From assembly GCA_028285525.1 (NCBI GenBank), contig JANQOZ010000004.1:3329-67328 (forward strand): 64,000 nucleotides of DNA, read 5' to 3'. Each line of letters opens with the position of its first letter. The stretch's first letter is position 1. Shown piece after piece: positions 6,955-59,567 of this stretch. This stretch comes from Lysobacterales bacterium (lineage in GTDB: Bacteria; Pseudomonadota; Gammaproteobacteria; Xanthomonadales; SZUA-38). The notes beneath the pieces were generated by a model. That model worked only from the letters and a program-made list of their open reading frames with translations. It was not told where the DNA came from and made no database searches. The translations under genes were made by a program, and so were the position numbers.

Positions 6955-6977
6955 GATGTCGCGGAGTTTGCTCGGCG

Positions 6978-8552: not shown

Positions 8553-8555
8553 AGG

Positions 8556-11328: not shown

Positions 11329-11354
11329 GGTCAGTCTGCGCAGCCGAGGGGAGC

Positions 11355-11846: not shown

Positions 11847-12133
11847 TTCGAGGACCATGGAGCACCTTCGGGAAAACGCAGCGCCACACCATAACGCAGC
11901 GACCGTGAGGCGCCCCATGCAATTTAGCTATGGCGTCGAGAGCATCGCGAATAGTGTGGTTTGAACATCGCCTCAGCCTGCAGTAACGCACCAGGTTCCT
12001 GCGTTCACATGCGTGCTGCTTATCCTGGCTTCCACCCTTTGCATTGGTATTTGCCAAAGCTTTCCGCCTGAATACCCCCTTCGCAAAAGCCGGCCGGCGC
12101 CGCTTTGCCGTCCGTCGTCAACGAGGTGCAACA

Positions 12134-42725: not shown

Positions 42726-42737
42726 CGCTCCGACGAA

Positions 42738-44150
42738 TTACGGCTCAATGTAGGTGACCCTGGCTGATCGGATCTGTAGGTTAACGTCGCTGGCGGTGAA
42801 AACCGTTCCAGCGAGATACAGCGTCCCCGCCTGGTTATTCACAACAATGTTCTGATCTAGAAACGCCAGCGTCCTAACGTTTGCTGACGCACTGGATGTT
42901 TGCCCGCTCAGAATTGGCGCCGAGCTATCGGTTGTATGTTCATTTCGTCGTAGCTGTAGGGTGAGTTGGCCGGCGGAATTGTCGACGTAGAAGAATTCGA
43001 GCGCCGTAATCACCGCGCCGTCAGGCAGTTCCAGCGGCGCAAAAAGATCGGCGAAGGAACCGCTCGATTTTTCCAGGTAAACGCCCCTGAAGTCCTGAAC
43101 CCGCACCGCGCTGGCGGTCGGGTCTGCGAGGTCGAAGGCGGTGTGCGAAATGGCTTTGACTCGAGTGGTTGCCTGGTCAGGTCCTAGAACCAGATCGCCA
43201 TTCGCTTCAACCAGCACCACCCGGTTCCCTGCGCTTGCATGGCTGAGGCCTTCGATTCTCGCATCGCCCTGTACGTGCAGCGTCTGTTCAGGAACAGCGC
43301 CACCCACACCCAACCTAGCCTCCCGATCCAGGATCAGCGAGTAGGAACCATTCCAGACCCGAAACTGGTCGGTCTGCTCATCGAATTCCGTAAACGCTCG
43401 CGGCTGTCCCGCTACGGCGTAGCCGTAAAAAGGTTTTTCCTCCGCCAGCTTGTCGACATCCACATACATACCGCCGAACGGCTCCAGGCTGAACTCGTCA
43501 TAGTCCTGAACCACAAATCTTCCCGCGCCCACCGGGCCCGTTGCTCCGCCCACGCCGGCCCCGCCATCGGTGGTGATGAAGTTCTGGCCGACCGACCAGT
43601 CGCCATCGCCAACCGGCTGGCAGGTCACCTGGCCGCTTTCGCTGATGGCGGTCACCGCCGTGCCCGCGCTGCAGGTGCCCTGAATCCGCTGCTGCACCTG
43701 AGATTCGTCGATCTGCGCACTCCCTACCGCGCCGCTGGCAATTTCGCCCGAGCCCACCGAACCCATGGCGACAAACTCCGCGTGCAGTGCATAAGGTACG
43801 GCGCTGACGGGTTGGCGCGGCAGCAAAGGTTCCAGCGGTTGAGTAGCCACATCCGGACCTACCTCGATCTCCAGCCACAGCTGATCGCCGGCAAAGGGTG
43901 AGATGCCGAAGTCGAGCTGCACGGTGAAGATGCCGTTGACCACCCTAACGTCCTGTAGCTCAATCGCTGAGCCGAGCGGCGAGCCGCCGGTATCTACGTC
44001 GAACAAAGCAAACGAGAAGTCGAACTGGCCGTTCGCCGGTTGCCCTCCCTGCTGCAGCTCACCCTGGTAGCTAAAGGCACTTTCCAGCGGTGCTGCGCCC
44101 GCAATCCTCTGGAAAACCAGCAAAAAAATCAGCAACGTTCCGTGTTTCAT
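42738..44150 (-). CDS. exported fibre/adhesin-like protein with N-terminal YQG module (paralogous module in 46078..47400)
   Basis: Start moved to the ATG at 44150 (MKHGTLLIFLLVFQRIAGAAPLE), preceded by aagggga. The N-terminal about 110 aa aligns with 46078..47400. The C-terminal part looks like a jelly-roll (LELPDGAVITALEFFYVDNS). Confidence 0.75.
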   Translation of the reverse strand: MKHGTLLIFLLVFQRIAGAAPLESAFSYQGELQQGGQPANGQFDFSFALFDVDTGGSPLGSAIELQDVRVVNGIFTVQLDFGISPFAGDQLWLEIEVGPDVATQPLEPLLPRQPVSAVPYALHAEFVAMGSVGSGEIASGAVGSAQIDESQVQQRIQGTCSAGTAVTAISESGQVTCQPVGDGDWSVGQNFITTDGGAGVGGATGPVGAGRFVVQDYDEFSLEPFGGMYVDVDKLAEEKPFYGYAVAGQPRAFTEFDEQTDQFRVWNGSYSLILDREARLGVGGAVPEQTLHVQGDARIEGLSHASAGNRVVLVEANGDLVLGPDQATTRVKAISHTAFDLADPTASAVRVQDFRGVYLEKSSGSFADLFAPLELPDGAVITALEFFYVDNSAGQLTLQLRRNEHTTDSSAPILSGQTSSASANVRTLAFLDQNIVVNNQAGTLYLAGTVFTASDVNLQIRSARVTYIEP

Positions 44151-44153
44151 GGT

Positions 44154-44185
44154 GTATCCCCTTACTTGGTTCATACAGGGGATAC
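44154..44185 (-). promoter_or_regulatory. hairpin sequestering the Shine-Dalgarno of 42738..44150
   Basis: Perfect 9-bp inverted repeat gtatcccct (44154-44162) / aggggatac (44177-44185) with a 14-nt loop. On the minus-strand mRNA the 3' arm AGGGGAUAC is the SD, 3 nt before the AUG. Confidence 0.5.
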
Positions 44186-44276
44186 GCGGTGGCTCAGCGG
44201 AACCCGACACCGCCATCTGGCCGCCAGGCGGGTATACTGCGCGCCCCTTATGCCCGGTCTGACGCCGGAACTGCTC

Positions 44277-46031
44277 ATGAACGATTCCCCAAAAGCGCCG
44301 CTAACCTTCGCTGAGCTCGAGCTGCCAGGCAGTCTCCTGAAGGCGCTTGACGCCGTCGGCTACGAAAACCCCACCCCGATTCAGGCGCAATCGATCCCGG
44401 TGCTGCTGGAAGGGCGCGACCTGCTGGGTCACGCGCCTACCGGCACCGGCAAGACCGCGGCCTTTACGCTGCCTTTGCTGGCCCGGCTGGATCTGAAGTC
44501 CAAGGCGGTACAGCTGCTGGTGCTTGCGCCGACGCGCGAGCTGGCGATCCAGGTCGCAGAGGCGTGCCAGCGCTACGCCAGCAAAATGCCCGGCTTTCAC
44601 GTGCTGCCGATCTACGGCGGTCAGGAGTACGGCCAGCAGCTTCGCCAGCTGCGTCGAGGGGTACAGGTGGTGGTCGGCACGCCGGGGCGGGTCATGGACC
44701 ACATGCGGCGCGGCTCGCTCAAGCTGGAAAACCTCAAGGCGCTGGTGCTCGACGAGGCGGACGAGATGCTCCGCATGGGTTTCATCGATGACGTCGAGTG
44801 GATCCTGGAACAGGCTCCGGAGGAGCGGCAGATGGCCCTGTTCTCCGCGACCATGCCAAAAGAAGTTGAACGGATCGCCCGGCGCCATCTGAAAGACCCG
44901 GCGACGATCGAAATCGCGGCGAAAACCGCCACGGCTGACACGATCAACCAGCGATACTGGGTGGTAAGCGGCCTCCACAAGCTGGACGCTCTGACTCGGG
45001 TGCTCGAGGTTGAGCCGTTCGACGCCACGCTCATTTTTGTGCGCACCAAGATTGCGACTACCGAGCTAGCGGAGAGGCTGGAGGCTCGAGGCCACGCCGC
45101 GGCGGCGATCAACGGCGACATGGTCCAGAAAAACCGCGAACAGGTGATCGATCGGCTGAAGCGCGGTTCGCTGGATATTCTGGTGGCCACGGACGTCGCG
45201 GCGCGGGGGCTCGATGTCGACCGAATCACGCATGTCGTTAACTACGACATCCCCTACGACGCGGAAGCCTACATCCACCGCATCGGCCGCACGGGCCGCG
45301 CCGGCCGCCAGGGGGAGGCGATCCTGTTTGTTGCCCCGCGCGAGCGGCGCATGCTCAAAACGATCGAGCGCGCGACTCGCCAGCCCATCGCCCGGCTCGA
45401 GCTGCCAACCACCGAGATGGTGAACAACAAGCGGCTGGCCGACTACAAGCAGAGCATTACGGACACCCTGGCGGCCGGCGAGCTGGAGTTTCTGCGCTCT
45501 TTGCTCGAGCAGTACCAGCAGGAGCATAACGTGCCCGCCCTCGACATCGCGGCGGCGGTTGCCAGGCTGGCGCTTGGGGATCAGCCGCTGCTGCTGAAGG
45601 ACGAGCCCAATCCGCCCGCCTTCAAGGAGCGGGATCAGCGCAGCCGGCATAAGGGAGACAAAGCGCGGGGGCAAAAAGGGAACGACAAAGGGCGAGGGCC
45701 TCGAGACGATTCTCGTCGTACGGTTGGCAAAGGCCGGCGAGACGGCGACAGGCCCGAAAAGGGCATGGACCGCTACCGGATCGACGTTGGGCACCAGCAC
45801 GGCGTTAAGCCGGGCAACATCGTCGGTGCTATCGCCAGCGAGGCGGGGCTGGATTCACGCTACATCGGACGCATCAATATCGAGCAGGATCACTCGACCG
45901 TCGACCTGCCATCCGGCATGCCCGGCGAGGTGTTTCGATCGCTCAAGAAAACCTGGGTGTGCGGACAGCGGCTGAATCTGAGCCGGGTGAATCCGCCGCC
46001 GGCCAGGGACCGTCATCGAAAGAAAAAGTGA
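44277..46031 (+). CDS. deaD: DEAD-box ATP-dependent RNA helicase DeaD/CsdA-like
   Basis: Start at the ATG at 44277 (44250 is also in frame). Q-motif GYENPTPIQ, AxTGTGKT, DEAD, SAT, HRIGRTGRAG. Arg/Lys-rich linker and C-terminal DbpA-type RNA-binding domain. Confidence 0.93.
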   Translation: MNDSPKAPLTFAELELPGSLLKALDAVGYENPTPIQAQSIPVLLEGRDLLGHAPTGTGKTAAFTLPLLARLDLKSKAVQLLVLAPTRELAIQVAEACQRYASKMPGFHVLPIYGGQEYGQQLRQLRRGVQVVVGTPGRVMDHMRRGSLKLENLKALVLDEADEMLRMGFIDDVEWILEQAPEERQMALFSATMPKEVERIARRHLKDPATIEIAAKTATADTINQRYWVVSGLHKLDALTRVLEVEPFDATLIFVRTKIATTELAERLEARGHAAAAINGDMVQKNREQVIDRLKRGSLDILVATDVAARGLDVDRITHVVNYDIPYDAEAYIHRIGRTGRAGRQGEAILFVAPRERRMLKTIERATRQPIARLELPTTEMVNNKRLADYKQSITDTLAAGELEFLRSLLEQYQQEHNVPALDIAAAVARLALGDQPLLLKDEPNPPAFKERDQRSRHKGDKARGQKGNDKGRGPRDDSRRTVGKGRRDGDRPEKGMDRYRIDVGHQHGVKPGNIVGAIASEAGLDSRYIGRINIEQDHSTVDLPSGMPGEVFRSLKKTWVCGQRLNLSRVNPPPARDRHRKKK

Positions 46032-46077
46032 GGCGCCGCCAGCCGGGAGGGCTGTGACCGGCGACACCCCAAAAACG

Positions 46078-47400
46078 CTACTGGTCGCAGGCTGTGGCCG
46101 TCAGGAACCCATCTTGCAGCGGCCTGAAATTGAGGTCGTAGTTGTTTCTGCAGATCAGTGAGTCTGGAGTGCCGGTTAACTTGTCGCTGTTGTCGAAGAA
46201 CACCAGTTGGGAGCCGGCAGTGCCAATAGCCCCGAGACCAGTTACCTCGAAGAGTACCGAGTTGAAGCCGAAAGCCGTAGCGAGGCGCGACCGCTGAAAC
46301 CGGGGACTACCATTGATGGCCAGCTGCACGGAGCGCTGTCCACCGCAGATGATACTGTCGTAAACCTCGGGTGATGACTCCGAAAGGAACATGCCGATTC
46401 CCGTACTCGAGCTGCCGGAGCAGGAGAGCTCCGAGCCTCCCCCACCTAGGAAAGTCGAGTCGTAGATGAGCGCCTGCGGAAATCCGGCGGCCGCATTGAC
46501 GCTGGCCAGCCCGGCATTGACGTTAGTAGCTCCCTCCGCTTGCGCTCGGACCCGGCGGATCGTCGGCGCAGCGTCCAGCAGATAAATTGCGGTGTGGCCA
46601 ACTCCACCGACATCGTCAAGGATCACGTTGACGTCTTCAAGCACCGTGCTGAGCGTGACGTCGACTGACATGAATACGCCGATGGAAATAGCCGAGTTCC
46701 CGCGGTTTCTGACGGTCAAGCCGCTGACTTGCGCAGCATCAAGAAGCCGCACGGTCGCCGCATCGGCGGTTTGCGTCCCAGCAGTCCGTTCGCTGACGAT
46801 GGTAGTTGCCTGAATACCGCTGCCTCGCAGTTGCACGTTTCCCGGCACCTCCACCAGGTCAGTCTCCGTAAACTCGCCAGGACCTACCTGCACCAGGTAG
46901 GAGTTTTCCGGGCTGGCGTCGGAGATGCTGTTCAGCGCCGCGGCGACGGATGAGAAATCTCCGCCGACCGTTGCCACCGTGATGAGATTGCCGATAGCCA
47001 GCGTTTCGGCCACGCCAGCGCTCAGTGCGTAGAGGCTGGCGGGAGAAGGTGCGAGCTTGGTCCTAGGCGTGAGTGGCGTAAAAAGCGCGATCTGCCTGCC
47101 GTCGCGAACGCCGACCTCCAGCCAAAGCTGTTCGTCGCTGATACCCGTGAGCCCAAAGTCCAGCTCGATGGAAAAAATACCGTCAACAACGTCTACATCC
47201 TCGACCACCACGGCGGGCGCCAGGGCTGAACCGTTTTCGGCAACGTCAAACAGGGACACCTCAAAATCGAAGGTACCGTTGGCCGGGCGCCCCAGCTGAT
47301 TGAGCTGGCCCTGATAGGTGAAAGCGGTCTCCAGGGGTGCTGCGGAAGCTAAACTCATCACGCACAGCCCGGCGATGAGACAAAGGTAAGTCCGTTTCAT
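46078..47400 (-). CDS. exported fibre/adhesin-like protein: N-terminal YQG module + beta-helix-like C-terminal region
   Basis: 440 aa. Signal peptide MKRTYLCLIAGLCVMSLASA and SD aaggaggg. N-terminus AAPLETAFTYQGQLNQLGRPANGTFDFEVSLFDV... is paralogous to 42738..44150. Confidence 0.75.
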   Translation of the reverse strand: MKRTYLCLIAGLCVMSLASAAPLETAFTYQGQLNQLGRPANGTFDFEVSLFDVAENGSALAPAVVVEDVDVVDGIFSIELDFGLTGISDEQLWLEVGVRDGRQIALFTPLTPRTKLAPSPASLYALSAGVAETLAIGNLITVATVGGDFSSVAAALNSISDASPENSYLVQVGPGEFTETDLVEVPGNVQLRGSGIQATTIVSERTAGTQTADAATVRLLDAAQVSGLTVRNRGNSAISIGVFMSVDVTLSTVLEDVNVILDDVGGVGHTAIYLLDAAPTIRRVRAQAEGATNVNAGLASVNAAAGFPQALIYDSTFLGGGGSELSCSGSSSTGIGMFLSESSPEVYDSIICGGQRSVQLAINGSPRFQRSRLATAFGFNSVLFEVTGLGAIGTAGSQLVFFDNSDKLTGTPDSLICRNNYDLNFRPLQDGFLTATACDQ

Positions 47401-47412
47401 AGTAAGCCCTCC

Positions 47413-47700
47413 TTACTCAAATCCATTCGCGAAAATCAGCTCCGGGCGCACAACGTTTTCCTGAGCCCAGAATCCGGCGCGCACCGTAAAGTCGCCGCCG
47501 GCGGACTCCTGCGTTGCTGGCTGCCCGGCCGTGCCGGTCAGCACAAAGTCTCCCCCCGCGGCCTGTCCGCCGCCGCCGGCGATTACGCTGCGCCGAATGT
47601 CAAAGCCACCACCGCTTTGGGCAAAGGCTCCGGCAGTAAGAACCGTTCCGCCCGCCAGAAGCAGGGCAGACAGATGGTGGAGCGCACTCTGCTTGTTCAT
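47413..47700 (-). CDS. small exported Gly-rich repeat protein with C-terminal FANGFE tag
   Basis: 95 aa. SD gggaga and signal peptide ending AFA-Q. Three GG[GD]F-x-[ILV] repeats. Ends ELIFANGFE. Lies 12 nt upstream of, and is co-oriented with, 46078..47400. Confidence 0.65.
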   Translation of the reverse strand: MNKQSALHHLSALLLAGGTVLTAGAFAQSGGGFDIRRSVIAGGGGQAAGGDFVLTGTAGQPATQESAGGDFTVRAGFWAQENVVRPELIFANGFE

Positions 47701-47873
47701 GGTTTTCTCCCTGTCTATGTGTCAGCTTCGATCATGTCGCATAGCCGCCAGAAAGCTTGAACATTTCCTAACGAAGTCATGACGGGACAGCGAATTCGCG
47801 ATAAATCAGTGCCTTGGCACGATTCCGGCTATACTCGACGGGTCGAATCTCAGGAACTAAAAGGGGCTGTTTC

Positions 47874-49199
47874 GTGCGGATCGGGAATAGGAAAAAGCTG
47901 CCTTGGAAGGCCGCGTTGCTGGCGCTGGCCGTGTCGGCCGGCGCGGCTCACGGCGGAGAATCGGCGGGATTCTGCGATGGGGTCACGCCTCCGGCGCCGG
48001 ATGCGTTCGAGCCTAATAACACCTTCGAAACGGCTTTTCCGATTGCGCCATACACTGAGTTTTCGCAGGTACAAAACTTCAGTGACGATACCGACGTGGA
48101 CTGGTTTTTCTTTCGAGCCTTCGACTTTGCCAGCACTGGCAACGTGTACCCCATAAGTTTCAGGAGCCCGCCTTTTGGCTCGGGTATTTCGATGACCACG
48201 ACCGAGCCTTTTCAAGGTGCCGGTGTATTTATTCGAATTTTCCAGGTCGACGGCAGCAACCTAACCGAAATTGTCCCGCCGGTCGGAGATCCGGGGACGC
48301 TCGAGCTCATCGACCAGGGCTGCATCTTCGAGCCATTTGATATTGAATTCCGTTTCGACACGACGAGCGACTACGCCATCTCGCTCAGCCAGTGTCGAAA
48401 CGAGGGTCTGGACGTGAACGGAAACATGATTGCCGACAACGAGGAATACTGTATCCCGGATGATCCGAGTTTCGGCTTGCATCTGATTCGCCCTGAGATT
48501 TTTATATCGGGTGAGCTTACCGGGACTGTTACTGACGCTATCACTATGCAGCCAATTCCGTTGGCGGCGGTTATTGGCGGAAATGTTGGCTTAACCGCCT
48601 ACAGCAATCCAGCTAATGGCGTTTATTCGGGTATTGCATCGCAAGTCACGGGAGCGACTGCGACCGTGTTTCGACAGGGTTATGTGTCTAGAAACATTCA
48701 GTTTGATTTGGTCCAGGATCAAATAACCCCCTGCGACATCCCACTGATGCCCGAAGGGGTTAGCATGGATTCAGACCTGACGATTAGTAGCCTCAACACA
48801 AGCTCCAACGAGATGTTCTTTGGTGAGTCGTTTAGCGTTAGCACCCAAATCAGTAACAGCGGTGCCGGTGCCTCACCAGCAACCGCGCTGCGCTTCTACC
48901 TCTCGAACGATGCCACGATCGATACCAGCGACACCGAGATCGGCAGCAGCATGATCGCGGGCATCATGGCGGGGCAGATTTCGCCCAACACGTCTTCCGT
49001 CCAGGCCCCGGAGAGCGAAGGCAGCTTCTTCTTTGGTGCGTGCGTGGACACGGTCGATGGTGAAAGCAACGCCACCAATAACTGCTCTGCCTCGGTGCCG
49101 CTCACCATCAACTACCGCTTCCGCGACGGTTTCGAAACGCCGACGGCTCAGCCTGCAGCGCTTCCCAAAGGCGACCCGGCAGCCTGTACACTGCTGTAG
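47874..49199 (+). CDS. exported multidomain protein (PPC-like, carboxypeptidase-regulatory-like and CARDB-like domains)
   Basis: I prefer the GTG at 47874 after aagggg (VRIGNRKKLPWKAALLALAVSAGAAHG). PDAFEPNNTFETAFPI...DDTDVDWFFF is a pre-peptidase C-terminal-like motif. CARDB-like DLTISSLNTSSNEMFFGESFSVSTQISNSG. FRDGFE lies 20 aa before the stop. Confidence 0.75.
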   Translation: MRIGNRKKLPWKAALLALAVSAGAAHGGESAGFCDGVTPPAPDAFEPNNTFETAFPIAPYTEFSQVQNFSDDTDVDWFFFRAFDFASTGNVYPISFRSPPFGSGISMTTTEPFQGAGVFIRIFQVDGSNLTEIVPPVGDPGTLELIDQGCIFEPFDIEFRFDTTSDYAISLSQCRNEGLDVNGNMIADNEEYCIPDDPSFGLHLIRPEIFISGELTGTVTDAITMQPIPLAAVIGGNVGLTAYSNPANGVYSGIASQVTGATATVFRQGYVSRNIQFDLVQDQITPCDIPLMPEGVSMDSDLTISSLNTSSNEMFFGESFSVSTQISNSGAGASPATALRFYLSNDATIDTSDTEIGSSMIAGIMAGQISPNTSSVQAPESEGSFFFGACVDTVDGESNATNNCSASVPLTINYRFRDGFETPTAQPAALPKGDPAACTLL

Positions 49200-49557
49200 A
49201 AGTGACTGGCCTAGTGACTGACTTGGAGATCGGCATTACTCAGATGCTGAAAGGGAGCGCCAACAAAGACCTCGGGTCGCTGCTGTCTATGAACAAGTGC
49301 GTCTACATAGAAACAACGGATCGCATGATCGGTTGAATCAAGTATGAAAGGGCGTTAGGGCGCAATGCGGTCTCATCGATGGAGATTAAACCTTGCGTAT
49401 TTGCTTCCTAAAGGTGACCGAATTGTTCGGTGCGCGGGATCTGACGCTAACTAAGGTCGGTTGTTTCTCAGCGCAATCCGTTCACAAATATCCTAACGAC
49501 AGATGCTCGTGAGAATCAAAGCCGAGTAGAGTTACTTCAACGCTTCGTGTCACTTTT

Positions 49558-50364
49558 TCAGAACCCGGTGATAACGTAATTGGCCCATGAGAAGTCTTGG
49601 GCCTCTCCAGATGTACCGTTTGCGTTCGCATCAATTAACGGCGTCTGTATAGGAATGCCTACTTGTGTTAACCCAGCCGCTACGGTGAAGGCATCTGATA
49701 CGGTTCGCCGCGCAAGCAATCCTTCAAGGAAGCGCATTTCAAAAGAAACAGAGCCGCGAGCAATGTAGTAGGAAGGATTATCTTCACCTGCTGCAGTCAT
49801 GATGGTTGGAGAGACCCATGTGCCGGAGGACCATGTCGGGAATATCCCAGCTGATCTCGCTTGGAACGTTGAGAGTAAACCCCCTCCAAAACAGGAGCCT
49901 ACAAGCATCGTCACTTTGCCCGTTACCCGTTGTTGCAAGTCAATTACTAGGTCGCTCAGATCCGTGAACAAAAGACTTTCCGACGAGTTTAGGCGGATTG
50001 AGGTGCTGCCTCCATGAGCGACGATAAACACAAAAACGTCTTTTGTTGTCGGTGGAACACCTGCGAACGCCGAAAAAACACTGGCGAGGTTCGCCAACCC
50101 GTCCGCGTTGGCAATCGAACTATCGTTTACCAAATAAATTATGTCTGAGGAAGAAAAGCCTAAGTCACGGAATGTTTGGAAACCGAAAGTCGCAATACGC
50201 CTTCGAGTATCAATTAGCGAGTCAGAACCGGGAGGGCCCGAACCTTCCACCCCGCTGTCGATAATCAAGACCTGTGACTGAGCAGAAGCGACGTTTAGCA
50301 CGCTTGTCGCAATTCCCAAAATCATACATAACGCGCAAAGGTATAGTTGTGTTTTGGTGTTCAT
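49558..50364 (-). CDS. exported legumain-like cysteine peptidase (family C13, clan CD)
   Basis: The ATG at 50364 overlaps the upstream stop (ATGA). Signal peptide present. VFIVAHGG and MLVGSCFGG are 41 residues apart, matching the His/Cys dyad spacing of legumain as I recall it. The gene is about 50% GC. Confidence 0.7.
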   Translation of the reverse strand: MNTKTQLYLCALCMILGIATSVLNVASAQSQVLIIDSGVEGSGPPGSDSLIDTRRRIATFGFQTFRDLGFSSSDIIYLVNDSSIANADGLANLASVFSAFAGVPPTTKDVFVFIVAHGGSTSIRLNSSESLLFTDLSDLVIDLQQRVTGKVTMLVGSCFGGGLLSTFQARSAGIFPTWSSGTWVSPTIMTAAGEDNPSYYIARGSVSFEMRFLEGLLARRTVSDAFTVAAGLTQVGIPIQTPLIDANANGTSGEAQDFSWANYVITGF

Positions 50365-51074
50365 AGACTTAGTTGGAAACACGTGTTACCGAATCCGTCA
50401 AAAAGCTCGTTGAACAAGCCATTACCATTCGCATCTATGACCAGTCCCGACGAGTTGTAGATAAACAGTTGGGCATTGCGCGCAGAGAGAGCCGCTTCCT
50501 TCACACAATCACCTGCCAAGATTCCTGTGAAGAGTAGGTGAGCTACTGTATCAAGTCCAAGAAAACCAGCTCGGTAACCTTGCTGGTTAGCGACTAAGTA
50601 AGGGGCATCGCTTGGCCCAGTTCCGAAGGCGAGTTGTTCGACAAATCTGTGCGTGTTTGGCCCGTCGTGTATCACCGTTAAACTGTTCGAGATCCGGGTT
50701 TTCGCGACAATTAGTCTCGACCGCATCAACGATGCCGTATACGTCTGTGGGTTCAAGAATAGTAGGTCGCCGTTATTTGCCGTCGGCGCCAATATCAACA
50801 GCACTGCGTTGTCAGCGTTGATGAATTGTGTCATCAGGCTGTAATCCAAGGACCTGAAAGATGGCCGAACTAGAGTTCGGACGCTCGAAAAACCGTTCCG
50901 CTTCAGAACCTTGGAAGCGTGGTTTGCGACATGCAGATAAACGTCTTCTCCGCCAAAAGTATTACCACCGACGACGATCAAGGCCTTATTGTTTGCGCCA
51001 GTAGCTGCGACGCTTACCGAAAAAAGCAGTGTCGCTAACAAAATGGTTTTTTGCATTGCTTTCCTTATGAACAT
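50361..51074 (-). CDS. exported C13-peptidase-like paralogue lacking the His/Cys dyad (probable pseudo-peptidase)
   Basis: 237 aa with a signal peptide. Collinear with 49558..50364, but has LLILAPTANNG in place of VFIVAHGG and LTVIHDGPN in place of MLVGSCFGG. Shares the C-terminal IDANGNG loop. Confidence 0.6.
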   Translation of the reverse strand: MFIRKAMQKTILLATLLFSVSVAATGANNKALIVVGGNTFGGEDVYLHVANHASKVLKRNGFSSVRTLVRPSFRSLDYSLMTQFINADNAVLLILAPTANNGDLLFLNPQTYTASLMRSRLIVAKTRISNSLTVIHDGPNTHRFVEQLAFGTGPSDAPYLVANQQGYRAGFLGLDTVAHLLFTGILAGDCVKEAALSARNAQLFIYNSSGLVIDANGNGLFNELFDGFGNTCFQLSL

Positions 51075-51392
51075 GTTTCGGGCGAAGGTTTCATTCGCGA
51101 GCTTTCGCGTGCAACTGCCGATTTCGCGAAGGGTAGCAGTAAAAACAAAAACCTAGCAATATTTAAGCCCGATAAAGTTGGGTGTCGGTACCGACGGGGT
51201 GCCCCACCAGATGCTAGAGCGATCGTTCATCGACCACCACGGTTACGGAGCGAATTCAAAGCGTTGGTGCGGCTATCTGCCAAAACAACAGACTTGCTCG
51301 CTGGGCAGAGGCTTTTGCTTTCCCTAAGCTAGTGTTCAAGTTGCGAAGTCTCGTGAAGAACCCAGCCAACTCCCTGAACTAGTTATCCGTCA

Positions 51393-52898
51393 GTGAAACC
51401 GTTGGTCCTACAGTTTTGTGCGGTCCTTTTGCTTGCCGGGTGCGCCGGCCTCGAGCCGGTTTCGCTGGCGCCGGAGTTTACGCCGTCCCCGGCCGAGGCT
51501 CCGGTTTGGAACGAGGTAGCGTCGGCGAGAGACGGAAGCTGGTATCAGCTGCTCAACACCGGCCCGGCAGCCCTCGACTGGCGGCTGCATGCTATCGACT
51601 CGGCCACTGAAAGTCTGAGCTTTCAAACTTTTCTCTGGCATTTCGACACCGCGGGTTCGCTCATGCTGGATCGCCTGCTGGCAGCCGCGGACCGCGGCGT
51701 GCGGGTTCGGGTGCTGGTCGACGATACGTTCCTGGTACACCAGGATCGGCTGCTGCTGGCGCTGGCCGAACATCCAAACCTTGAGTACCGGGTGTACAAC
51801 CCGTTCAAGCGGCGGGGCGGAGGGCTGGCGACGCGTCAGCTGCTGAACCTGGCTGAGTTTCGCCGGCTCGACCATCGCATGCACAACAAGGTGATGGTGG
51901 TAGACAACCGAATCGCCATTGTCGGCGGTCGGAACATTGCTGACGAGTACTTTGGCCTCGACAACGAAGCAAACTTTCGCGATCTCGAGCTCATTGCCGG
52001 CGGTAACGTGGTGCAGGAGATCAGCGAGGCGTTCGACGACTACTGGAACGATCGCTGGTCGTTTCCCATCGATCGGCTATCACACGAGCAGGCCTCGCCG
52101 GAGGCGCTTGAGGCAGCAAGGTCAGAGGGAGTAAACGCGAACGATCTCCACCAGGAGGACGCTCCCGAGATACAGCGTGAGCGCTGGCTTTCGCTGGCGC
52201 GGTCGGCACATGAAGGCATGGCCGAGCTCATTGTCGATGCACCCGCCCACGACAACCCCGCCAGCGCCGCGGACGCCCCGGTGGCTGTGGCCGATCGCTT
52301 GATCGAACTGTTCGACAGCGCCCAGCAAGAGATCGTGATGGTCTCAGCTTATCTGATCCCGACGCCCGAGCTGGAGGGAGCCATCGCCCGCGCCGTGGAA
52401 CGCGGTGTTGCCGTGCGAATGCTGACCAACTCGATCCGTTCGAATAATCACCTCGCGGCACACAGCGCTTACCGTAATCATCTGAAGGGCTTGCTGGGTA
52501 TGGGTGCAGCGCTCCACGAAGTTCGGATTGACGCTGAGGATCGGCCGAAATACATGCTCAAACCGGTCGGCGCGAAACAGCTTGCCCTGCATGCAAAGGC
52601 CCTGCTGTTCGATTCCGATAAGGTGTTTATCGGCAGCGCTAATCTCGATCCGCGCTCGTTGCGGATCAACACCGAGATGGGGCTGCTGATCACCAGCGAA
52701 TCGCTAAACCAGCAGCTCCGCCAGGATCTGGAAGTCGACTTTTCACTGGCCAACGCCTGGCGGCTGACCCTGCAGGACAACGGCCGGGTCAGTTGGACCT
52801 CAAGCGACAGGACGCTCCAGTCTCAGCCGGCCGGTTCTTTTATGCAGCGGCTGGAAGACTGGATGCTTTCGCACCTGCCGCTGGAAAACGAAATGTAG
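51393..52898 (+). CDS. phospholipase D / cardiolipin synthase-family lipoprotein (two HKD motifs)
   Basis: GTG start and lipobox LLLAGCAG. HKD1 HNKVMVVDNRIAIVGGRNIADEY and HKD2 HAKALLFDSDKVFIGSANLDPRS. Confidence 0.9.
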   Translation: MKPLVLQFCAVLLLAGCAGLEPVSLAPEFTPSPAEAPVWNEVASARDGSWYQLLNTGPAALDWRLHAIDSATESLSFQTFLWHFDTAGSLMLDRLLAAADRGVRVRVLVDDTFLVHQDRLLLALAEHPNLEYRVYNPFKRRGGGLATRQLLNLAEFRRLDHRMHNKVMVVDNRIAIVGGRNIADEYFGLDNEANFRDLELIAGGNVVQEISEAFDDYWNDRWSFPIDRLSHEQASPEALEAARSEGVNANDLHQEDAPEIQRERWLSLARSAHEGMAELIVDAPAHDNPASAADAPVAVADRLIELFDSAQQEIVMVSAYLIPTPELEGAIARAVERGVAVRMLTNSIRSNNHLAAHSAYRNHLKGLLGMGAALHEVRIDAEDRPKYMLKPVGAKQLALHAKALLFDSDKVFIGSANLDPRSLRINTEMGLLITSESLNQQLRQDLEVDFSLANAWRLTLQDNGRVSWTSSDRTLQSQPAGSFMQRLEDWMLSHLPLENEM

Positions 52899-52916
52899 CT
52901 CAACGCCACGCGCCGC

Positions 52917-54440
52917 TCACTGCTGCTCAAAGCTGTCGGAAAACAGCAGGTCTGGGAGTAGAAACTGCCCGAAGACCTCGATCTCGCGGAAGGCGAGATC
53001 TTCTCGGCTATCGTTGCCGTCCCAAACGGTCAAGAACTGACGGGTCTGGGAGTTGTACGCCATGTCTCCCCGGCCCGCGCCATACTGAGAATTGCCGTCC
53101 GGCCCCATTTGGCTAAGCCTTTCCCGCTCCAGGATGGGGAAACCGTTGGTGTTCAGCCGCTGGCCGTAGACTTCAAATTCGTTGTTGACCAGCAGGCCTT
53201 CGTTGTTCTCTCCGCGAAATACCAGCAGGTAAGCCCCGTCGACCGGATCGACCCGAAGGATTGGGTTTAGAGCCCAGTAGGTGTCACTGCCATCCGGGCC
53301 CATCGCCGTTACTCGGCGAGAAACATCCAGGAGTGATCCGTCCGGGCCGATTCGTTTGACCCAGATTTCCATGTCGTTCCGCACCGAACCACCGAAATCA
53401 TCGCTGCCGTTCCATGCCACCAGATACTCATTGGTGACGGGATTGTAGGCCGGGGATGCGTTGGTGCTGTCATAGCGCGTGTCGCCTGCAGGCCCAAGCG
53501 CGCTGATACGGATATCGTTGGGCCCCACCTCGTCACCGGTTGCCATGTCGATGAGCTGACCGTAAACCTCTACATCGCCATTCACCCCAGTGGCGGAGTC
53601 ATCGTCGCCCTCCCAGGTCACAAAGTAGTTGCCGTTTACCTCGTCAACCGCAATGGCGCAGTCGGCGGCGGTAAAGCTTGGGTTACCGTCGACGGCCCCC
53701 ATGTCACTGATGCGGATGACCCGCTCCAGCAGCAGGTTGCTGTCGCCGGCGATCCGCTGACCCCAGATCTCCGTCTCCTGATCCATCGTCACGCCGACAA
53801 TGTTGTCGCCGCTCCAGGTGACAAAAAACTCGTTCTGGCTGGCGCTGTAGGCCACCGCAGGCGTCTTGCCCTCGGCTTCCGTGTCGCCCTCCAGACCCAT
53901 GAAGCTGATCCGGAACTGTTCGTCCAGCGGGCTGGCGTCCGCGCCGAGCCGGCGCCCGAACACTTCGCGCTTGTCGTCCACCAGGGGCCCCGTGTTGTCG
54001 TCACCCCACCAGACAACCAGATACGTGTTGTTCTGAGAATTCCAGGCCACCTCCGGATTGAGCGCCTCAAAAAACCCGAGGCCTTTTGCTTCGTTGTTGT
54101 GCACAAGTTTGCCGGCCGAAAAATTGAGCACGTCCGGACCCATGCGGGAGACCCGTACCGGCGAGCCGATATTCCTTCCGGTGGTGCCGTCGATCCGCTG
54201 AGCGTAAATCTCGTCTTCGAGTACGGGTGCATTCACCGGCGAGTCACCCGACCAAACCACCAGAAACTCATTGTCGGAAGCGTTGTAGGCAATGCCGGGG
54301 TTGACCGCAACGTAACCCTCATCCAGCGCCGGCCCGGCGTCGGTGATACGAAAATCGTTGGGCCTCAGTTCGAGCCCAAGCGCCTGATGGCCCAAGGTCA
54401 GCACCAGCCAAAAACATCCCAGTTTTGCTACAGACATCAT
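52917..54440 (-). CDS. exported protein built of seven ~65-aa tandem repeats (propeller-like), C-terminal FSDSFE tag
   Basis: 507 aa. SD gggaga and a signal peptide. The repeat core is [FI]R[IV]S..G..G......P.VAYN...N.[YF]LV.W.G.........E[IV][YFW]GQR. Ends LLFSDSFEQQ. Confidence 0.75.
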   Translation of the reverse strand: MMSVAKLGCFWLVLTLGHQALGLELRPNDFRITDAGPALDEGYVAVNPGIAYNASDNEFLVVWSGDSPVNAPVLEDEIYAQRIDGTTGRNIGSPVRVSRMGPDVLNFSAGKLVHNNEAKGLGFFEALNPEVAWNSQNNTYLVVWWGDDNTGPLVDDKREVFGRRLGADASPLDEQFRISFMGLEGDTEAEGKTPAVAYSASQNEFFVTWSGDNIVGVTMDQETEIWGQRIAGDSNLLLERVIRISDMGAVDGNPSFTAADCAIAVDEVNGNYFVTWEGDDDSATGVNGDVEVYGQLIDMATGDEVGPNDIRISALGPAGDTRYDSTNASPAYNPVTNEYLVAWNGSDDFGGSVRNDMEIWVKRIGPDGSLLDVSRRVTAMGPDGSDTYWALNPILRVDPVDGAYLLVFRGENNEGLLVNNEFEVYGQRLNTNGFPILERERLSQMGPDGNSQYGAGRGDMAYNSQTRQFLTVWDGNDSREDLAFREIEVFGQFLLPDLLFSDSFEQQ

Positions 54441-54619
54441 GTTTCTCCCGACTAACCGGTCTTATTCGAGCTTACGTAACCGAGCCCGGCGAACGACAGG
54501 TCGAATCAGGTTTTTTCCGGATATTTCCGATTTTTTGAATCCGAATGGCCCGTTGCTGCGAATAACCATCTGTGCACACCCAAACTTTCCCTACAAACGC
54601 TGTCAGGAGACACAAAAAG

Positions 54620-55405
54620 ATGACATTGATGAGATTTGCACTAGCCTCGCTGCTGCTGGGCCTGAGCCTGGGCGGCCCGGCCGCGATTGCGGGCCACAAG
54701 ACCACCGGAAACATTGTTGAGGTTGCCCAGGAGGCCGGCCAGTTCAACACGCTGATCGCCGCCGCCAAGGCTGCTGGACTGGCCGGTGCGCTCACCGGCG
54801 AAGGCCCGCTCACGGTTTTTGCACCCACCGATGAGGCGTTTGCCGCGCTGCCCGAAGGCACCGTGGAAAGCCTGCTCGAGCCTGAGAACAAGGAACAGCT
54901 GGTGGCGATCCTGACCTATCACGTGGCTCCCGCTCGCCTGAAGGCCAGCGACGTTGTCGCCAGCGACACGATCGAGACGCTGAACGGCAAGCAGCCGGCA
55001 ATTTCGGTGAACGGCAGTCAGGTCAAAATCGACGGTGCCAACATCGTCAAGGTGGACGTTGCGGCCAGCAACGGCGTGATCCACGTGATCGACAAGGTGC
55101 TGCTGCCGCCGGCCGACCAGCCGCTCAGCAGCCGGTCGCGCGAGCTGTTTCAGATGGCCATCAGCCGCGGCGCTCCGCTGTTCAACCACGGCAACGCCCA
55201 GGCGTGCTCCGATGTCTATGAGATGACGGTTGCCAGCGTGCTGGCGCTGGACGAGTCGCTGAGCGACGACCATCGCCGCACTCTGAGCCGTGCCATGGCC
55301 CGTGCTGAGCGCACCCACAGCGCCCGCAGCCGAGCGTGGATCATGCGCGACGCGATTGACGCTGTGTATGATGACAACATGCCGATGCAGCTGTCCGCCA
55401 ACTGA
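54620..55405 (+). CDS. exported fasciclin (FAS1) domain protein with extra C-terminal helical domain
   Basis: Start at the ATG at 54620 after aggaga (MTLMRFALASLLLGLSLGGPAAIA). FAS1 motifs TVFAPTDEAFAALP and NGVIHVIDKVLLPP. Confidence 0.88.
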   Translation: MTLMRFALASLLLGLSLGGPAAIAGHKTTGNIVEVAQEAGQFNTLIAAAKAAGLAGALTGEGPLTVFAPTDEAFAALPEGTVESLLEPENKEQLVAILTYHVAPARLKASDVVASDTIETLNGKQPAISVNGSQVKIDGANIVKVDVAASNGVIHVIDKVLLPPADQPLSSRSRELFQMAISRGAPLFNHGNAQACSDVYEMTVASVLALDESLSDDHRRTLSRAMARAERTHSARSRAWIMRDAIDAVYDDNMPMQLSAN

Positions 55406-55430
55406 TTTTGCGCATGACGCTTCAAGAACT

Positions 55431-55455
55431 GTGGCCCGCAGCCTTTGCGGGCCAC
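55431..55455 (+). terminator. GC-rich hairpin after the fasciclin gene
   Basis: Perfect 10-bp stem gtggcccgca / tgcgggccac with a 5-nt loop, 26 nt after the stop. No clear U-tract. Confidence 0.55.
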
Positions 55456-55462
55456 AACCTCT

Positions 55463-55495
55463 CACCCTCTCGGCACTACGGGCCACCCTCTCGGC
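55463..55495 (+). promoter_or_regulatory. 12-bp direct repeat pair upstream of the ECF sigma gene
   Basis: caccctctcggc occurs at 55463-55474 and 55484-55495, starts 21 bp apart. Each copy is preceded by a cgggccac element (directly abutting the second copy, about 6 nt upstream of the first). The pair lies 50-85 bp upstream of the ATG at 55547. Confidence 0.35.
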
Positions 55496-55546
55496 GGTTA
55501 TCGATGCCGTTGCTGCTTTGCGCGGCGGGCAGTCGGGAGGCGCGAG

Positions 55547-56095
55547 ATGGATAGCAGCATTCTGCAGCGCATCGGCGCGGGCGATACAAGCGCCGTGCGC
55601 GAATGTGTCCTCGTCTACGGGGCCCGCGTCTGGTCAATCGCTCGCCGCTTCAGCGCCACGCCCGCCGACGCGGAAGACGCCGCGCAGGAGATTTTTGTAG
55701 CGCTTTGGAAGTCAGCGCATCGTTTCGATCCTTCGAAAGCTGAAGAGGGCACGTTTGTGACGATGATCGCCCGCCGGCGGATGATCGACGGCCTGCGACG
55801 TGCGCCGGCACCGGTCGACTCGATCGAGGACATGCCGAACCTGGAGCAGGTTTCGGCGGGCGGCGGCTTTGCCAGCGCCGAAGATTCTGCTGAAGCCGCC
55901 AGCATCAGCGAAGTATTGAAGACCTTCGACAGCCCCCAGCGCGAGGTGATTGTGATGGCGGTTTACGGCGGCTTTTCACATTCGGCAATCGCCGAGCGGC
56001 TCAAACTGCCGCTAGGCACGGCAAAAACCCTGCTGCGGCGGGGCATGGATGAAGTTAGGCGGGTCTTGAACCTGGCCAGGGAGGAGGCGCTATGA
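55547..56095 (+). CDS. ECF sigma-70 factor (SigK-like)
   Basis: Start at the ATG at 55547 after gggagg. Region 2 EDAAQEIFVALWKSAHRFDP...FVTMIARRRMIDGLRR. Region 4 FSHSAIAERLKLPLGTAKTLLRRGMDEVRR. Confidence 0.88.
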   Translation: MDSSILQRIGAGDTSAVRECVLVYGARVWSIARRFSATPADAEDAAQEIFVALWKSAHRFDPSKAEEGTFVTMIARRRMIDGLRRAPAPVDSIEDMPNLEQVSAGGGFASAEDSAEAASISEVLKTFDSPQREVIVMAVYGGFSHSAIAERLKLPLGTAKTLLRRGMDEVRRVLNLAREEAL

Positions 56096-56793
56096 GCCAA
56101 CCCAAGGACACACCGAGAAACGATACACCCAAGATGAATGAAGTTGATGAATACACCGCGGCAGCGCTCGACCGTCTGATGGAGGACGCAGCGCCCCTGC
56201 CGCCGCTGCCGCCTGAGCTGGCGGCAAAGGTAATTGCCGACGGCGAGGCGATGGTCAGTGGTTTTGCCGCGCCGGAGCCGACCGCACGTCGGCCGGATCG
56301 CCAAAGACCGCTGCGCTGGTGGCAGAATCCGCTGCCCGCCTGGGGCGCGGCGTTTGCCTGTCTGCTCCTGGCGCTGAGCATCATGCTTGCACCCGCTCGA
56401 TTTGAGCGGTCGTCGCCGGCTGAACTGGACGCGGCGCTGGCGGAGAACGCTGACGCGGTGGAGCTGAACTGGCAGGGCATGGGCGATCCGGATTTCGACG
56501 GCGTCACGGGCTACGTTCGCTGGGACAACTCGACGCAGCAGGGCGTGATGCGTCTGACGGGTCTGCCGGTCAACAATCCGACCGAGCAGCAGTATCAGCT
56601 TTGGATTGTTGATCCGCTGCGTGACAGCAACCCGATTGATGGCGGCGTCTTCAACATCACAGAAGGTGAGAACCTCGTGGCGATCGACGCCAAGCTAGAA
56701 GTCATCCGTCCGAAGGCGTTCGCCCTGACCCTGGAGCAGCCGGGTGGGGTGGTCGTCTCAGCGGGACCGCTGCTCGTGATCGCGAGCAGCTGA
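56092..56793 (+). CDS. anti-sigma factor, RskA (anti-sigma-K)-like
   Basis: ATGA overlap with the sigma gene. Single TM WGAAFACLLLALSIMLAP. The C-terminal YQLWIVDP...IDGGVF...AFALTLEQPGGVVVSAGPLL is typical of the RskA domain. Confidence 0.8.
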   Translation: MSQPKDTPRNDTPKMNEVDEYTAAALDRLMEDAAPLPPLPPELAAKVIADGEAMVSGFAAPEPTARRPDRQRPLRWWQNPLPAWGAAFACLLLALSIMLAPARFERSSPAELDAALAENADAVELNWQGMGDPDFDGVTGYVRWDNSTQQGVMRLTGLPVNNPTEQQYQLWIVDPLRDSNPIDGGVFNITEGENLVAIDAKLEVIRPKAFALTLEQPGGVVVSAGPLLVIASS

Positions 56794-56798
56794 CGGGC

Positions 56799-57461
<663 letters not shown>

Positions 57462-57540
57462 CTTGGCTATGGTGCTATTCAATATGCCTATTAGGTCGCG
57501 CGATGGATAGTCGCTATTCTCCCGGCTGGCCAAGGAGAGC

Positions 57541-58983
57541 GTGATGACCGACAACCTGTCGTGCAAAGTTCTGATCTGCGGTGGCGGCCCCAGCGGTCTG
57601 GCCGCGGCGCTGATGTTTCAGGCGAGGGGCTGGCGAGACATCGTGGTGGTCGAGCGGCGGCCTACCCCCGATCAGTTCGAGCGCAGCAAGGCCTTCAACT
57701 ACCAGCTTGATGGTCGCGGGCAGCGGCTGCTCAATGAGCTGGGTATCGGGCCCGAAACGCTGGAGCAATTCGGCCTGCCGAACGATCACTTTACGCTGAC
57801 CAATTTCCTGGCGGACGGGAAGGTCAAGGTGGTGCAGCCGCCGATCCTCGTGCCCGACCGGAAAACGCCGTACTGGATGACCCGCAACCGGCTGCTGGCC
57901 ATGCTTCATCAGTACATCGAAACAACGAACACCGAAGGAGCGATCCGGCTGCTGTACGGCCACAGCTTCGAGGGGCTTGAGCAGGCCGATGATGGACGCC
58001 TGGTGGCGCAGATCCGAAGTGAGGATGATGCCGTGCTCCGTTACGAGCCGGAGCTGCTCCTGGGCTGCGACGGCCTGCGCTCGCGAGTGCGTGAGGCGCT
58101 GGCCAGGCTGGCCGACGACCCGGATGCCTTCGACATGCTGCAGTTTCCGTCACCCAGCACGGGCCTCACCTATAAGGTGCTCAACCTTCCGCCGCAGTTT
58201 CCTGTTCGTACCGATCCGAAGGGCGTCCACGATCACGCCATGGCGTATGCGTTTATCTCGAACTACAGCGCGCCCGACGAGAAGCTCGCGCTATTTGCGC
58301 TGCCTGTGGCCAGTGCCGAGGACCCGCGCACCATCAACATCATCCTGAAGCCGGAGCACAAGTTCTGGCAGCTTGGGAGCGCGGAAGAGGTCACGGCGTA
58401 TCTCAAGGAAGGATTCCCGCAGCTGGCGATCGACGAACTCGTGCCGGAGGAGGAAATGGCGGATTTCGCCGCGCTCAAGCCCGGCCGGTTTCCGGCGCCA
58501 CAATACACCCGCCGGATTCACAGCGAGTTCGACCAGGGCAGGCAGCAGGCGCTGCTGATCGGCGACGCGGCACATGCGTTTCCGCCGGACCTCGGGCTCG
58601 GCGTCAACTCGGCGCTGGAGGACCTGTTCGAACTGAATCAGGCTTTGAACGCCGCCAGCGACAACGTGGCCGAAGCCAGCGCGGACTACGCCAAGGCGCG
58701 CGTACCGGAGAGTGAGGCGCTGGTGCAGCTCGTCCGACGGGTGCACCCGTATCAGTACAACCAGGACCCGTTACGCCTGAAGCTGTGGATGATGCGGTTT
58801 GTGTTCCAGCTCGGGCTGCACAAGCTATCCCGCGGCCTGGTGGAAATGCCTGGATTTATGCTGTCCCAAAAGCACCTGATGCCGTTCACGGAGATGTGGC
58901 GCCGCTTCCAGCGCGGTAACTACACGGTGATGGGGCTGGGGGTCGCCTCTGGATTGCTCCTTGGCCGGTTGCTGCTTGGGTAA
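57541..58983 (+). CDS. FAD-dependent monooxygenase (kynurenine 3-monooxygenase-like)
   Basis: 480 aa. Dinucleotide fold VLICGGGPSGLAAAL. GDAAHAFPPDLGLGVNSALED motif. Hydrophobic C-terminal tail. Confidence 0.88.
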   Translation: MMTDNLSCKVLICGGGPSGLAAALMFQARGWRDIVVVERRPTPDQFERSKAFNYQLDGRGQRLLNELGIGPETLEQFGLPNDHFTLTNFLADGKVKVVQPPILVPDRKTPYWMTRNRLLAMLHQYIETTNTEGAIRLLYGHSFEGLEQADDGRLVAQIRSEDDAVLRYEPELLLGCDGLRSRVREALARLADDPDAFDMLQFPSPSTGLTYKVLNLPPQFPVRTDPKGVHDHAMAYAFISNYSAPDEKLALFALPVASAEDPRTINIILKPEHKFWQLGSAEEVTAYLKEGFPQLAIDELVPEEEMADFAALKPGRFPAPQYTRRIHSEFDQGRQQALLIGDAAHAFPPDLGLGVNSALEDLFELNQALNAASDNVAEASADYAKARVPESEALVQLVRRVHPYQYNQDPLRLKLWMMRFVFQLGLHKLSRGLVEMPGFMLSQKHLMPFTEMWRRFQRGNYTVMGLGVASGLLLGRLLLG

Positions 58984-59015
58984 ATAAGACCTGAAAGCCG
59001 GCGCGCCCTTCGAGT

Positions 59016-59567
59016 TCAGGCCGGCACCCGATGCGTGGCCGCTACGCAGGAGGCCTGGTCGTAAACACCCGCCATCAGGTTCAGGGTCTTGGCGGCGCTT
59101 TCCAGGCTGGTGTTGGCAAAGACGCCTGTTGTAAGCGACGTCAGCAGCTCCTGCCGGAACTCAGCGTAGCGATCGGTCACCTTCTGGCCCAGGTCCGACA
59201 TCTGGTAGGTCACGCCCTTTTTTCCCGTCTCGGTCGTTTTCTCAATGAGTCCCGCTTTCAGCAGCTTGCGCACGCTGTACTGAAGGTTGGCCTGATCATC
59301 CCGATTCAGGAGGCGGCCGATCTCGGAAATGCTCTTCGGTCGCTCGTGCATGCGAATGACGTGCATCACGGCGGTATCGGAGCCTGAGAAGGCGCTGCCG
59401 TGGCAGCAGGCGAGGCAGTCGGACTGCCACCGTTCGAAGGCAGCGGACACCCGGATGAGCGAAAACTCAAGCTCCGTCAGCGCCACCTCCGCGTCATCGG
59501 TGGCCAGATGCCAGTGTTTGTCGAGTCGGCGCAGCTGGTCCCCAGCCTGGTTTTTCTTGGCGTTCAT
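59016..59567 (-). CDS. MarR-like winged-helix transcriptional regulator
   Basis: 183 aa. wHTH region SISEIGRLLNRDDQANLQYSVRKLLKAGLIEK. Divergent from a TonB receptor gene. Confidence 0.75.
   Translation of the reverse strand: MNAKKNQAGDQLRRLDKHWHLATDDAEVALTELEFSLIRVSAAFERWQSDCLACCHGSAFSGSDTAVMHVIRMHERPKSISEIGRLLNRDDQANLQYSVRKLLKAGLIEKTTETGKKGVTYQMSDLGQKVTDRYAEFRQELLTSLTTGVFANTSLESAAKTLNLMAGVYDQASCVAATHRVPA

Follow-up and report, generated by a model that had tools for sequence, protein, structure and literature searches.

In caspase-8 with cFLIP-L, and in subdomains A and B of gingipain R, an active caspase-fold unit is combined with a homologous unit that has no catalytic dyad, and PorU, a C25-like signal peptidase of the type IX secretion system (T9SS), removes the C-terminal domain from other proteins. 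The S1 pocket of legumain, a clan CD peptidase of family C13, was described as zwitterionic and specific for asparagine and aspartate, with Arg44, His45, Ser216 and Asp231 as its residues (PMC4357240), and Ca2+ activates several clan CD enzymes (PMC4357240). On a bacterial C13-like peptidase family, a full-text literature search retrieved no published characterization. Here we analyze two overlapping genes, A and B, in a stretch of 64,000 nucleotides from a Lysobacterales bacterium (assembly GCA_028285525.1, contig JANQOZ010000004.1, positions 3,329 to 67,328 of the forward strand), which we call the window and to whose first letter all positions refer. Gene A (49558–50364, minus strand) encodes a secreted C13-like protein of 268 residues, with a predicted legumain fold and a His117/Cys158 dyad, as judged from the list of open reading frames (ORFs), a sequence profile and an AlphaFold model, and gene B (50361–51074, minus strand) encodes a paralogue without the dyad. 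A first-pass annotation, made from the sequence alone, had noticed the pair and proposed it as the enzyme that processes a C-terminal tail, F-x-N/D-G/S-F-E (the GFE tail), present on the products of nearby genes. We found that the pair is a split and order-swapped form of a C13-like clan CD enzyme, which probably constitutes a horizontally acquired two-gene operon encoding the active and dead domains of its family as separate secreted polypeptides, and that a role in processing the tail is very unlikely.

Fold and Family of the Gene A Product

The C13 assignment of the first-pass annotation is not reached by A itself when compared with Pfam Peptidase_C13 (PF01650; 19.6 bits for a cut-off of 22.8, E-value (E) 7e-4, residues 109–168 only), but it is reached by its relatives, since 13 of the 14 that were scanned pass the same cut-off (24.8–70.6 bits; the remaining one scored 20.9 bits). 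B gave no match to Peptidase_C13, neither protein had a match in NCBIfam or PADLOC scans, and a phmmer search of the PDB with A alone was not significant (GPI8 appeared with E 0.6, ranked under an antibody chain). The relatives were retrieved by a HMMER scan with A of 1.84 billion cluster representatives, which returned 645 proteins with E <= 1e-3, 224 of them with E <= 1e-10 (best E 1.5e-33), the closest one sharing 30% overall identity with A; several are named "C13 family peptidase" by NCBI.

A profile composed of A and 23 domains of its relatives, whose alignment still began with an NHL stub, was compared with the PDB and matched legumain, plant asparaginyl endopeptidases (AEP) and ligases, and GPI8 (E about 3e-8). 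The other matches were weak (E 4.5e-4 and weaker) and involved the NHL stub. The family motifs vdHGg and yDACeSGsF align with TDHGS (His148) and IEACESGSM (Cys189) of legumain, and His117 and Cys158 of A align with the dyad columns of both GPI8 and legumain. The AlphaFold model of A, when calculated with an alignment, has a predicted local distance difference test (pLDDT) score of 85.4 and a predicted template modeling (pTM) score of 0.85, with low pLDDT in the signal-peptide segment; the pLDDT was 35.7 when no alignment was given. All of the top 50 Foldseek matches of this model in the PDB are legumain, plant AEP or peptide asparaginyl ligases (PAL), or GPI8 (E 1e-10 to 7e-8, probability 1.00, TM score 0.54–0.61). 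The clan CD/C13 fold that had been proposed for A is thus borne out by the family profile, the AlphaFold model and the Foldseek comparison, which together confirm A as a predicted legumain-fold (clan CD, C13-like) protein, and the profile searches place it as a very divergent member of a large, uncharacterized bacterial C13-like family.

Active and Dead Domains in the C13-Like Family

The architecture counts given here cover the 150–151 proteins listed out of the 645 relatives. For the most part these are giant proteins that are secreted (median length 1596 residues). In those scanned, a signal peptide and two NHL beta-propellers are followed by two C13-like domains, the first (d1) separated from the second (d2) by an Ig-like InlK_D3 domain, and then by a C-terminus that varies (dockerin-like, TSP3, CarboxypepD_reg and other types). 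Exactly two C13-like domains are present in 136 of 151 proteins. The catalytic histidine and cysteine are kept in 131 of 149 first domains and in 11 of 142 second domains, and the order active-then-dead is observed in 122 of the 136 two-domain proteins. Since the association of an active with a dead domain is family-wide, it is the norm here and no peculiarity of the window. Short relatives with a single domain also exist (P0161, with 427 residues, is an example).

Gene A matches the hidden Markov model (HMM) of the family, in which A itself is included, with E 3.7e-69, and B matches it with E 2.8e-11. When compared with the two domain types separately, A scored 124.5 bits on a d1 HMM built without it and 113.4 bits on the d2 HMM, and B scored 47.3 bits on the d2 HMM and 34.0 bits on the d1 HMM. 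Among the 15 nearest neighbors of each protein, 14 are d1 domains for A and 11 are d2 domains for B, and Asp48 of A stands in the column of a d1-specific asparagine. By these comparisons A is d1-like and B is d2-like.

No other split two-gene pair was found: the five matches retrieved by an alignment search, which covered up to 8000 candidates, are single-domain or fragmentary forms, and the window holds the sole split two-gene form found here. A different split of the giant architecture was observed in GCA_039195135.1 (locus L002), in which a gene for an NHL propeller of 416 residues (2234–3484) lies just upstream of a C13-C13 gene of 730 residues (3935–6127). It may reflect a frameshift; the ORF that begins at the upstream start 3542 has an NHL-like N-terminus.

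Organization of the Gene Pair

Both ORFs are as they had been annotated. B lies upstream of A, and the stop codon of B and the ATG of A share the sequence ATGA (50361–50364, minus strand), which we read directly at the junction (...AGT CTA TGA AAC...). No Shine-Dalgarno sequence was read before the ATG of A, and this, together with the ATGA overlap, fits translational coupling. B has 237 residues if translated from the ATG at 51074; its more likely start is the ATG at 51056, with an AAGGA lying 8 nt before it, and the 231-residue protein on record begins there. Putative signal peptides were recognized by eye in both proteins, MNTKTQLYLCALCMILGIATSVLNVASA in A (50281–50364, minus strand; it ends in NVASA and is followed by a glutamine) and MQKTILLATLLFSVSVAATG in B, so that the signal peptide already noted for A is plausible and B has a plausible one too.

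In A, the putative catalytic residues are His117, in the segment FIVAHGGS (codon 50014–50016, minus strand, within VAHGG), and Cys158, in LVGSCFGGG (codon 49891–49893, minus strand, within GSCFG), which occupy the columns of legumain His148 and Cys189, respectively. The alignment and the codons agree with the His-Gly and Ser-Cys motifs and with the spacing of 41 residues that had been counted between them. For B, the lack of the dyad was correctly recognized, but the register of the residues had been off by one or two positions: in the profile alignments the catalytic His column is occupied by Thr98 (50781–50783, minus strand; it is Pro97 that precedes it) and not by a proline, and the catalytic Cys column by Pro139 (50658–50660, minus strand), the His-Asp formerly assigned to it being 2–3 residues upstream. 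B retains 11 of the 56 columns conserved in d1, and the alignments identify it as a collinear, d2-type paralogue without dyad. This collinearity with A, already claimed, is beyond chance in a comparison with the family profile (hhalign probability 97.5%, E 5e-12, 199 collinear columns), although a direct BLASTP comparison of A with B was not significant (E 0.14). The two proteins share 15% identity, against 36.5% for d1 and d2 inside one protein, so that A and B are not the outcome of a recent duplication.

A loop of the DxNxNG type, resembling Ca2+-binding loops by motif only, is located close to both C-termini, at residues 243–257 of A (LIDANANGTSGEAQD; 49594–49638, minus strand) and at residues 212–226 of B (VIDANGNGLFNELFD; 50397–50441, minus strand). 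These D-A-N-[AG]-N-G loops had been noticed before, and they are a conserved feature of the whole family (consensus P.LDdNGnGigNE.eD), with Asp245, Gly250 and Asp257 (A numbering) more than 80% conserved in both d1 and d2. At the nucleotide level, the sole trace of the paralogy of A and B is a repeat in this loop (49616–49635 and 50419–50438), encoding IDANANG in A and IDANGNG in B with 75% DNA identity.

Putative Catalytic Site of A

In d1, conservation reaches at least 80% in 56 columns, of which A retains 26. We identified seven columns that separate active from dead domains (in A numbering, Gly42, Asn48, Thr54, an aspartate in a DLDxNG insert, His117, Cys158 and Glu196) and that probably mark the active site; at these positions A keeps the histidine and the cysteine, and has Ser42, Asp48, Arg54, a gap in the aspartate column and Asn196. 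The family motif DACESG is GSCFGG in A. Given this divergence and the altered motif, A may be inactive or may have an unusual specificity, and we consider its catalytic activity plausible from the retained dyad, but not assured.

The residues of the S1 pocket of legumain do not seem to be conserved. Arg44 and His45 align with Ala/Thr in the family and with Thr53/Arg54 in A, in an N-terminal region where the alignment is weak, Ser216 aligns with an alanine in the family and with Ser198 in A, and Asp231 falls outside the significant alignment with the family and is probably not conserved. Judging from these alignments, the P1 preference of A is not transferable from legumain. Furthermore, A ends about 10 residues past the peptidase domain, with neither activation peptide nor LSAM prodomain.

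A Recently Acquired Islet

A and B, with their flanking non-coding DNA, are the only content of a 2.2-kb islet of low GC content (49200–51392). The GC content is 0.494 in the islet and 0.604 and 0.619 in its flanks, and at third codon positions (GC3) it is 0.49 and 0.53 in the two genes and 0.65–0.74 in the neighboring genes. The nearest species representative (JBCDKA010000084.1, here L006) has 86% nucleotide identity with the window and is otherwise collinear with it: window positions 42666–49199 align with 1–6531 of L006, and 51417–58983 with 6561–14125. At the site of the islet, L006 has 8 bp from the stop of the CARDB gene to the start of the PLD gene, and neither A nor B. The comparison of the insertion site is that with L006; in L005, the other close relative, the contig stops within the PLD gene. 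The arrangement of the window was also observed in an independent Logan assembly of the same sequencing run, with 100% identity over 9,819 bp.

When 5.8 billion protein clusters were searched by word index, A and B matched nothing but themselves, and no orthologue of either was found in these clusters, in the 1.84 billion cluster representatives, in the GTDB species genomes or in the JGI metagenomes. Because the islet is absent from the collinear L006, has a GC content of 0.49 compared with 0.61, and holds genes for which no orthologue was found, its sequence identifies it as a recent horizontal acquisition, foreign to the surrounding chromosome. No terminal repeats, tRNA or mobility gene that could explain the insertion were found in 49200–51392. 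A second indel separates the two genomes further downstream, where about 2.7 kb of L006 (14125–16858) have no counterpart in the window (58983–59016).

The GFE Tail and Its Carriers

The GFE tail follows the pattern [hydrophobic]-F-x-[D/S/N]-[G/S]-F-E, with 0–4 further residues. In the window it forms the end of four ORFs, and in one more it lies 22 residues before the end (the five are 4114–6954, 35883–37193 and 47814–49199 on the plus strand, and 47413–47700 and 52917–54440 on the minus strand). It is strongly enriched at C-termini, since the translated ORFs, with 41,640 residues, have four terminal and two internal matches, and it recurs in related metagenome-assembled genomes (MAGs), three times in 16 kb and three times in 24 kb. 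Across about 150 kb of sequence, taken from five "Pseudomonadota bacterium" genomes that are related (L002–L006; some loci overlap the window), twelve terminal matches were counted, compared with two doubtful matches in 1.25 Mb outside the clade, from 79 loci of other Gammaproteobacteria and of Woeseiaceae. The tail is therefore real and specific to one narrow clade. It is not followed by a transmembrane segment, the tailed proteins that were scanned have no match in NCBIfam, and a literature search for the DGFE motif returned nothing relevant. In the CARDB protein (47814–49199, plus strand), FRDGFE is followed by a 22-residue extension ending in ACTLL, and its counterpart in L006 ends in PPACTLL; the conservation of this extension indicates that the tail has here a separate form of its own, and that the protein is not truncated. 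The segments LFDGFG of B and ITGF at the end of A were considered as degenerate tails and rejected, since they fall in columns conserved throughout the family (NE.eDg... and ...YIGN).

Five giant NHL-C13-C13 proteins of this clade also end in the tail (P0068, P0087, P0089, P0111 and P0108, with the endings FQFQSGFE, ILRDGFE, FFFFSGFE, FQFASGFE and LFSDSFESVF, in no particular order). Loci of such tailed giants are L002 3935–6127, L003 10001–13840 and L004 10001–13957, and P0089 shares its sequencing run (SRR20820731) with the contig of the window. In the giants, D-C-x-D-F frequently precedes the tail (DCSDFQFASGFE, DCIDFQFQSGFE and ACDDFFFFSGFE). It is absent from 145 of the 150 listed family members, which end in dockerin-like or other modules. 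As they carry the tail themselves, the tailed giants look like cargo, in the same way as the tailed beta-helix, FG-GAP, CARDB and invasin-like proteins.

Proposed Function and Alternative Explanations

A and B most likely form a split, order-swapped and propeller-less version of the tandem d1/d2 module, in which A would be the d1-type subunit and B a d2-type pseudo-peptidase. The two proteins would be exported separately, and the ATGA overlap would favor their co-translation in similar amounts. By analogy with d1 and d2, which presumably associate within one chain, B may bind A and act as a structural or regulatory partner or as a scaffold, and the resulting complex may cleave substrates in the periplasm or outside the cell, perhaps with Ca2+ bound at the DxNxNG...D loops, as their motif suggests. 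The pair is an accessory module of this strain, outside the machinery acting on the GFE tail throughout the clade. Several observations weigh against this proposal. The gene order is dead-then-active, whereas the domains usually stand the other way round; A and B are far less similar to each other than d1 and d2 of one protein; 30 of the 56 conserved d1 columns and five of the seven active-specific columns are gone in A, whose GSCFGG motif adds to the doubt about its activity; and a scan found no sigma-70-like promoter for the pair. The same losses in A, together with the orphan status of both proteins, their accessory nature in the clade and the missing promoter-like site, would be expected if A and B were decaying or non-catalytic passengers, on their way to being lost or reduced to a binding function. 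This is the main rival explanation and we regard it as unlikely, because both ORFs are intact, each with its signal peptide and with the stop/start overlap preserved, because A keeps the histidine and cysteine that most dead d2 domains have lost, and because its model is a confident and complete domain fold. A cytosolic, caspase-like role in defense was also considered and rejected, as both proteins have signal peptides and neither has a PADLOC match.

The processing of the GFE tail could be attributed to the pair itself, as in the first-pass annotation, or to the C13-like family as a whole. In the former case, A and B would trim or transpeptidate the tailed proteins as a dedicated sortase- or PorU-like enzyme, for which the C13 fold of A is suggestive, as are the transpeptidases (GPI8 and the plant ligases) among its Foldseek matches, the three tailed genes less than 3 kb from the pair, the secretion of both proteins into the compartment of the presumed cargo, and the precedent of PorU, which also belongs to clan CD. 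Nevertheless, L006 keeps the three tailed neighbor genes with identical tails (ELIFANGFE; FRDGFE, followed by its extension; LLFSDSFEQQ) in the absence of the pair, so that the proximity of the pair to tailed genes reflects the landing site of the islet. The co-occurrence of the pair with tailed proteins, which the annotation had implied, was also not observed elsewhere, given that tailed proteins occur in at least four further genomes of the clade and that no A or B orthologue was found in any collection. The foreign base composition of the pair, the lack of conservation of the S1 residues of legumain, the absence of a membrane anchor or outer-membrane module from both proteins and the distribution of the tailed proteins across the 64 kb, not clustered on the pair, all point in the same direction, and so does the serine that 4 of 14 tails have as their proposed P1 residue, a weakness that the annotation itself had anticipated. 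We therefore give a dedicated tail-processing enzyme hardly any credence. In the latter case, the C13-like domains of the clade, mainly those of the NHL-C13-C13 giants, would recognize the tail as a sorting or processing signal, with A and B as a strain-specific extra copy; if true, Gram-negative bacteria would have a "sortase" system with a legumain fold. A C13 protein was found in every genome of the clade in which one could be sought (P0089 from the run of the window, P0068, P0111 and P0108 from two other MAGs, and P0156, probably from the MAG that holds L005), and the presence of the tail on five giant C13 proteins parallels PorU, which carries a T9SS C-terminal domain. However, this co-occurrence is biased, as most of the genomes were found through the C13 search itself; the tail is limited to a narrow clade; it is missing from 145 of the 150 listed members, so that the general role of the family is something else; and the simplest reading of the tailed C13 proteins is that they are cargo. 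A family-level function in tail processing thus has a slim chance of being correct, and the split, horizontally acquired C13-like pair is the explanation that we retain.

Genomic Context and Implications

The rest of the window is ordinary chromosome, with genes for TonB-dependent receptors, MFS transporters and metabolic enzymes, as well as two Ser/Thr kinases, an extracytoplasmic function (ECF) sigma/anti-sigma pair, DeaD and PLD, and no genes resembling a sorting system were found elsewhere in its 64 kb. The two large Ser/Thr protein kinase genes are adjacent (38013–40397 and 40431–42725, plus strand) and encode proteins of 794 and 764 residues; in L004, a similar kinase with TPR repeats adjoins an ECF sigma factor gene.

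With the pair set aside as an attractive but wrong candidate for the enzyme of the GFE tail, work on this tail should look elsewhere. The analysis also draws attention to an unstudied pattern, that of a family with 645 cluster representatives in which, among the listed members, an active domain nearly always comes together with a dead paralogous one. Should the dead domain prove to be an obligatory partner, A and B would be the simplest system in which to study the partnership, because they are two small secreted proteins that can be expressed separately. Finally, the islet shows cleanly how two genomes of sediment gammaproteobacteria, collinear in other respects, can differ by a recent gene gain.

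Comparison With Known Systems

Legumain/AEP and GPI8 (MEROPS family C13, clan CD, PF01650) are the best structural matches of A and share its predicted fold. As in legumain, the His-Gly precedes the cysteine, with the same spacing of 41 residues and in the same profile columns, and the protein is secreted. The differences are considerable: A is about 13% identical to these proteins and scores below the Pfam cut-off, it has no C-terminal LSAM prodomain, the S1 residues Arg44 and His45 (and probably Asp231) are not conserved, EACESG is replaced by GSCFGG, and it has a dead paralogue as its partner, unlike legumain.

With PorU and the sortases, the pair has in common the clan CD fold (in the case of PorU) and the concept that a sorting signal is removed from the C-terminus. 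In contrast to them, A and B show no co-occurrence with the tail from genome to genome and have no anchoring module, and the GFE tail has 6–10 residues and is neither a folded C-terminal domain nor an LPXTG motif with a transmembrane segment. The active/dead pairs of clan CD, caspase-8/cFLIP-L and gingipain R, resemble A and B in that a catalytic unit is joined to a dyad-less homologue; they belong, however, to families C14 and C25, and the interaction of A with B is one that we infer.

The true nearest relatives are the bacterial C13 giants (e.g., MEM9181718.1 and MEM9530026.1), with up to 30% overall identity. A and B differ from these in being separate genes, in reversed order and each with a signal peptide, and in having no NHL propeller, Ig-like linker, DLDxNGxxDDVDGDAT insert or C-terminal module. 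They share with the giants the same domain, the DxNxNG loop and the pairing of an active with a dead unit.

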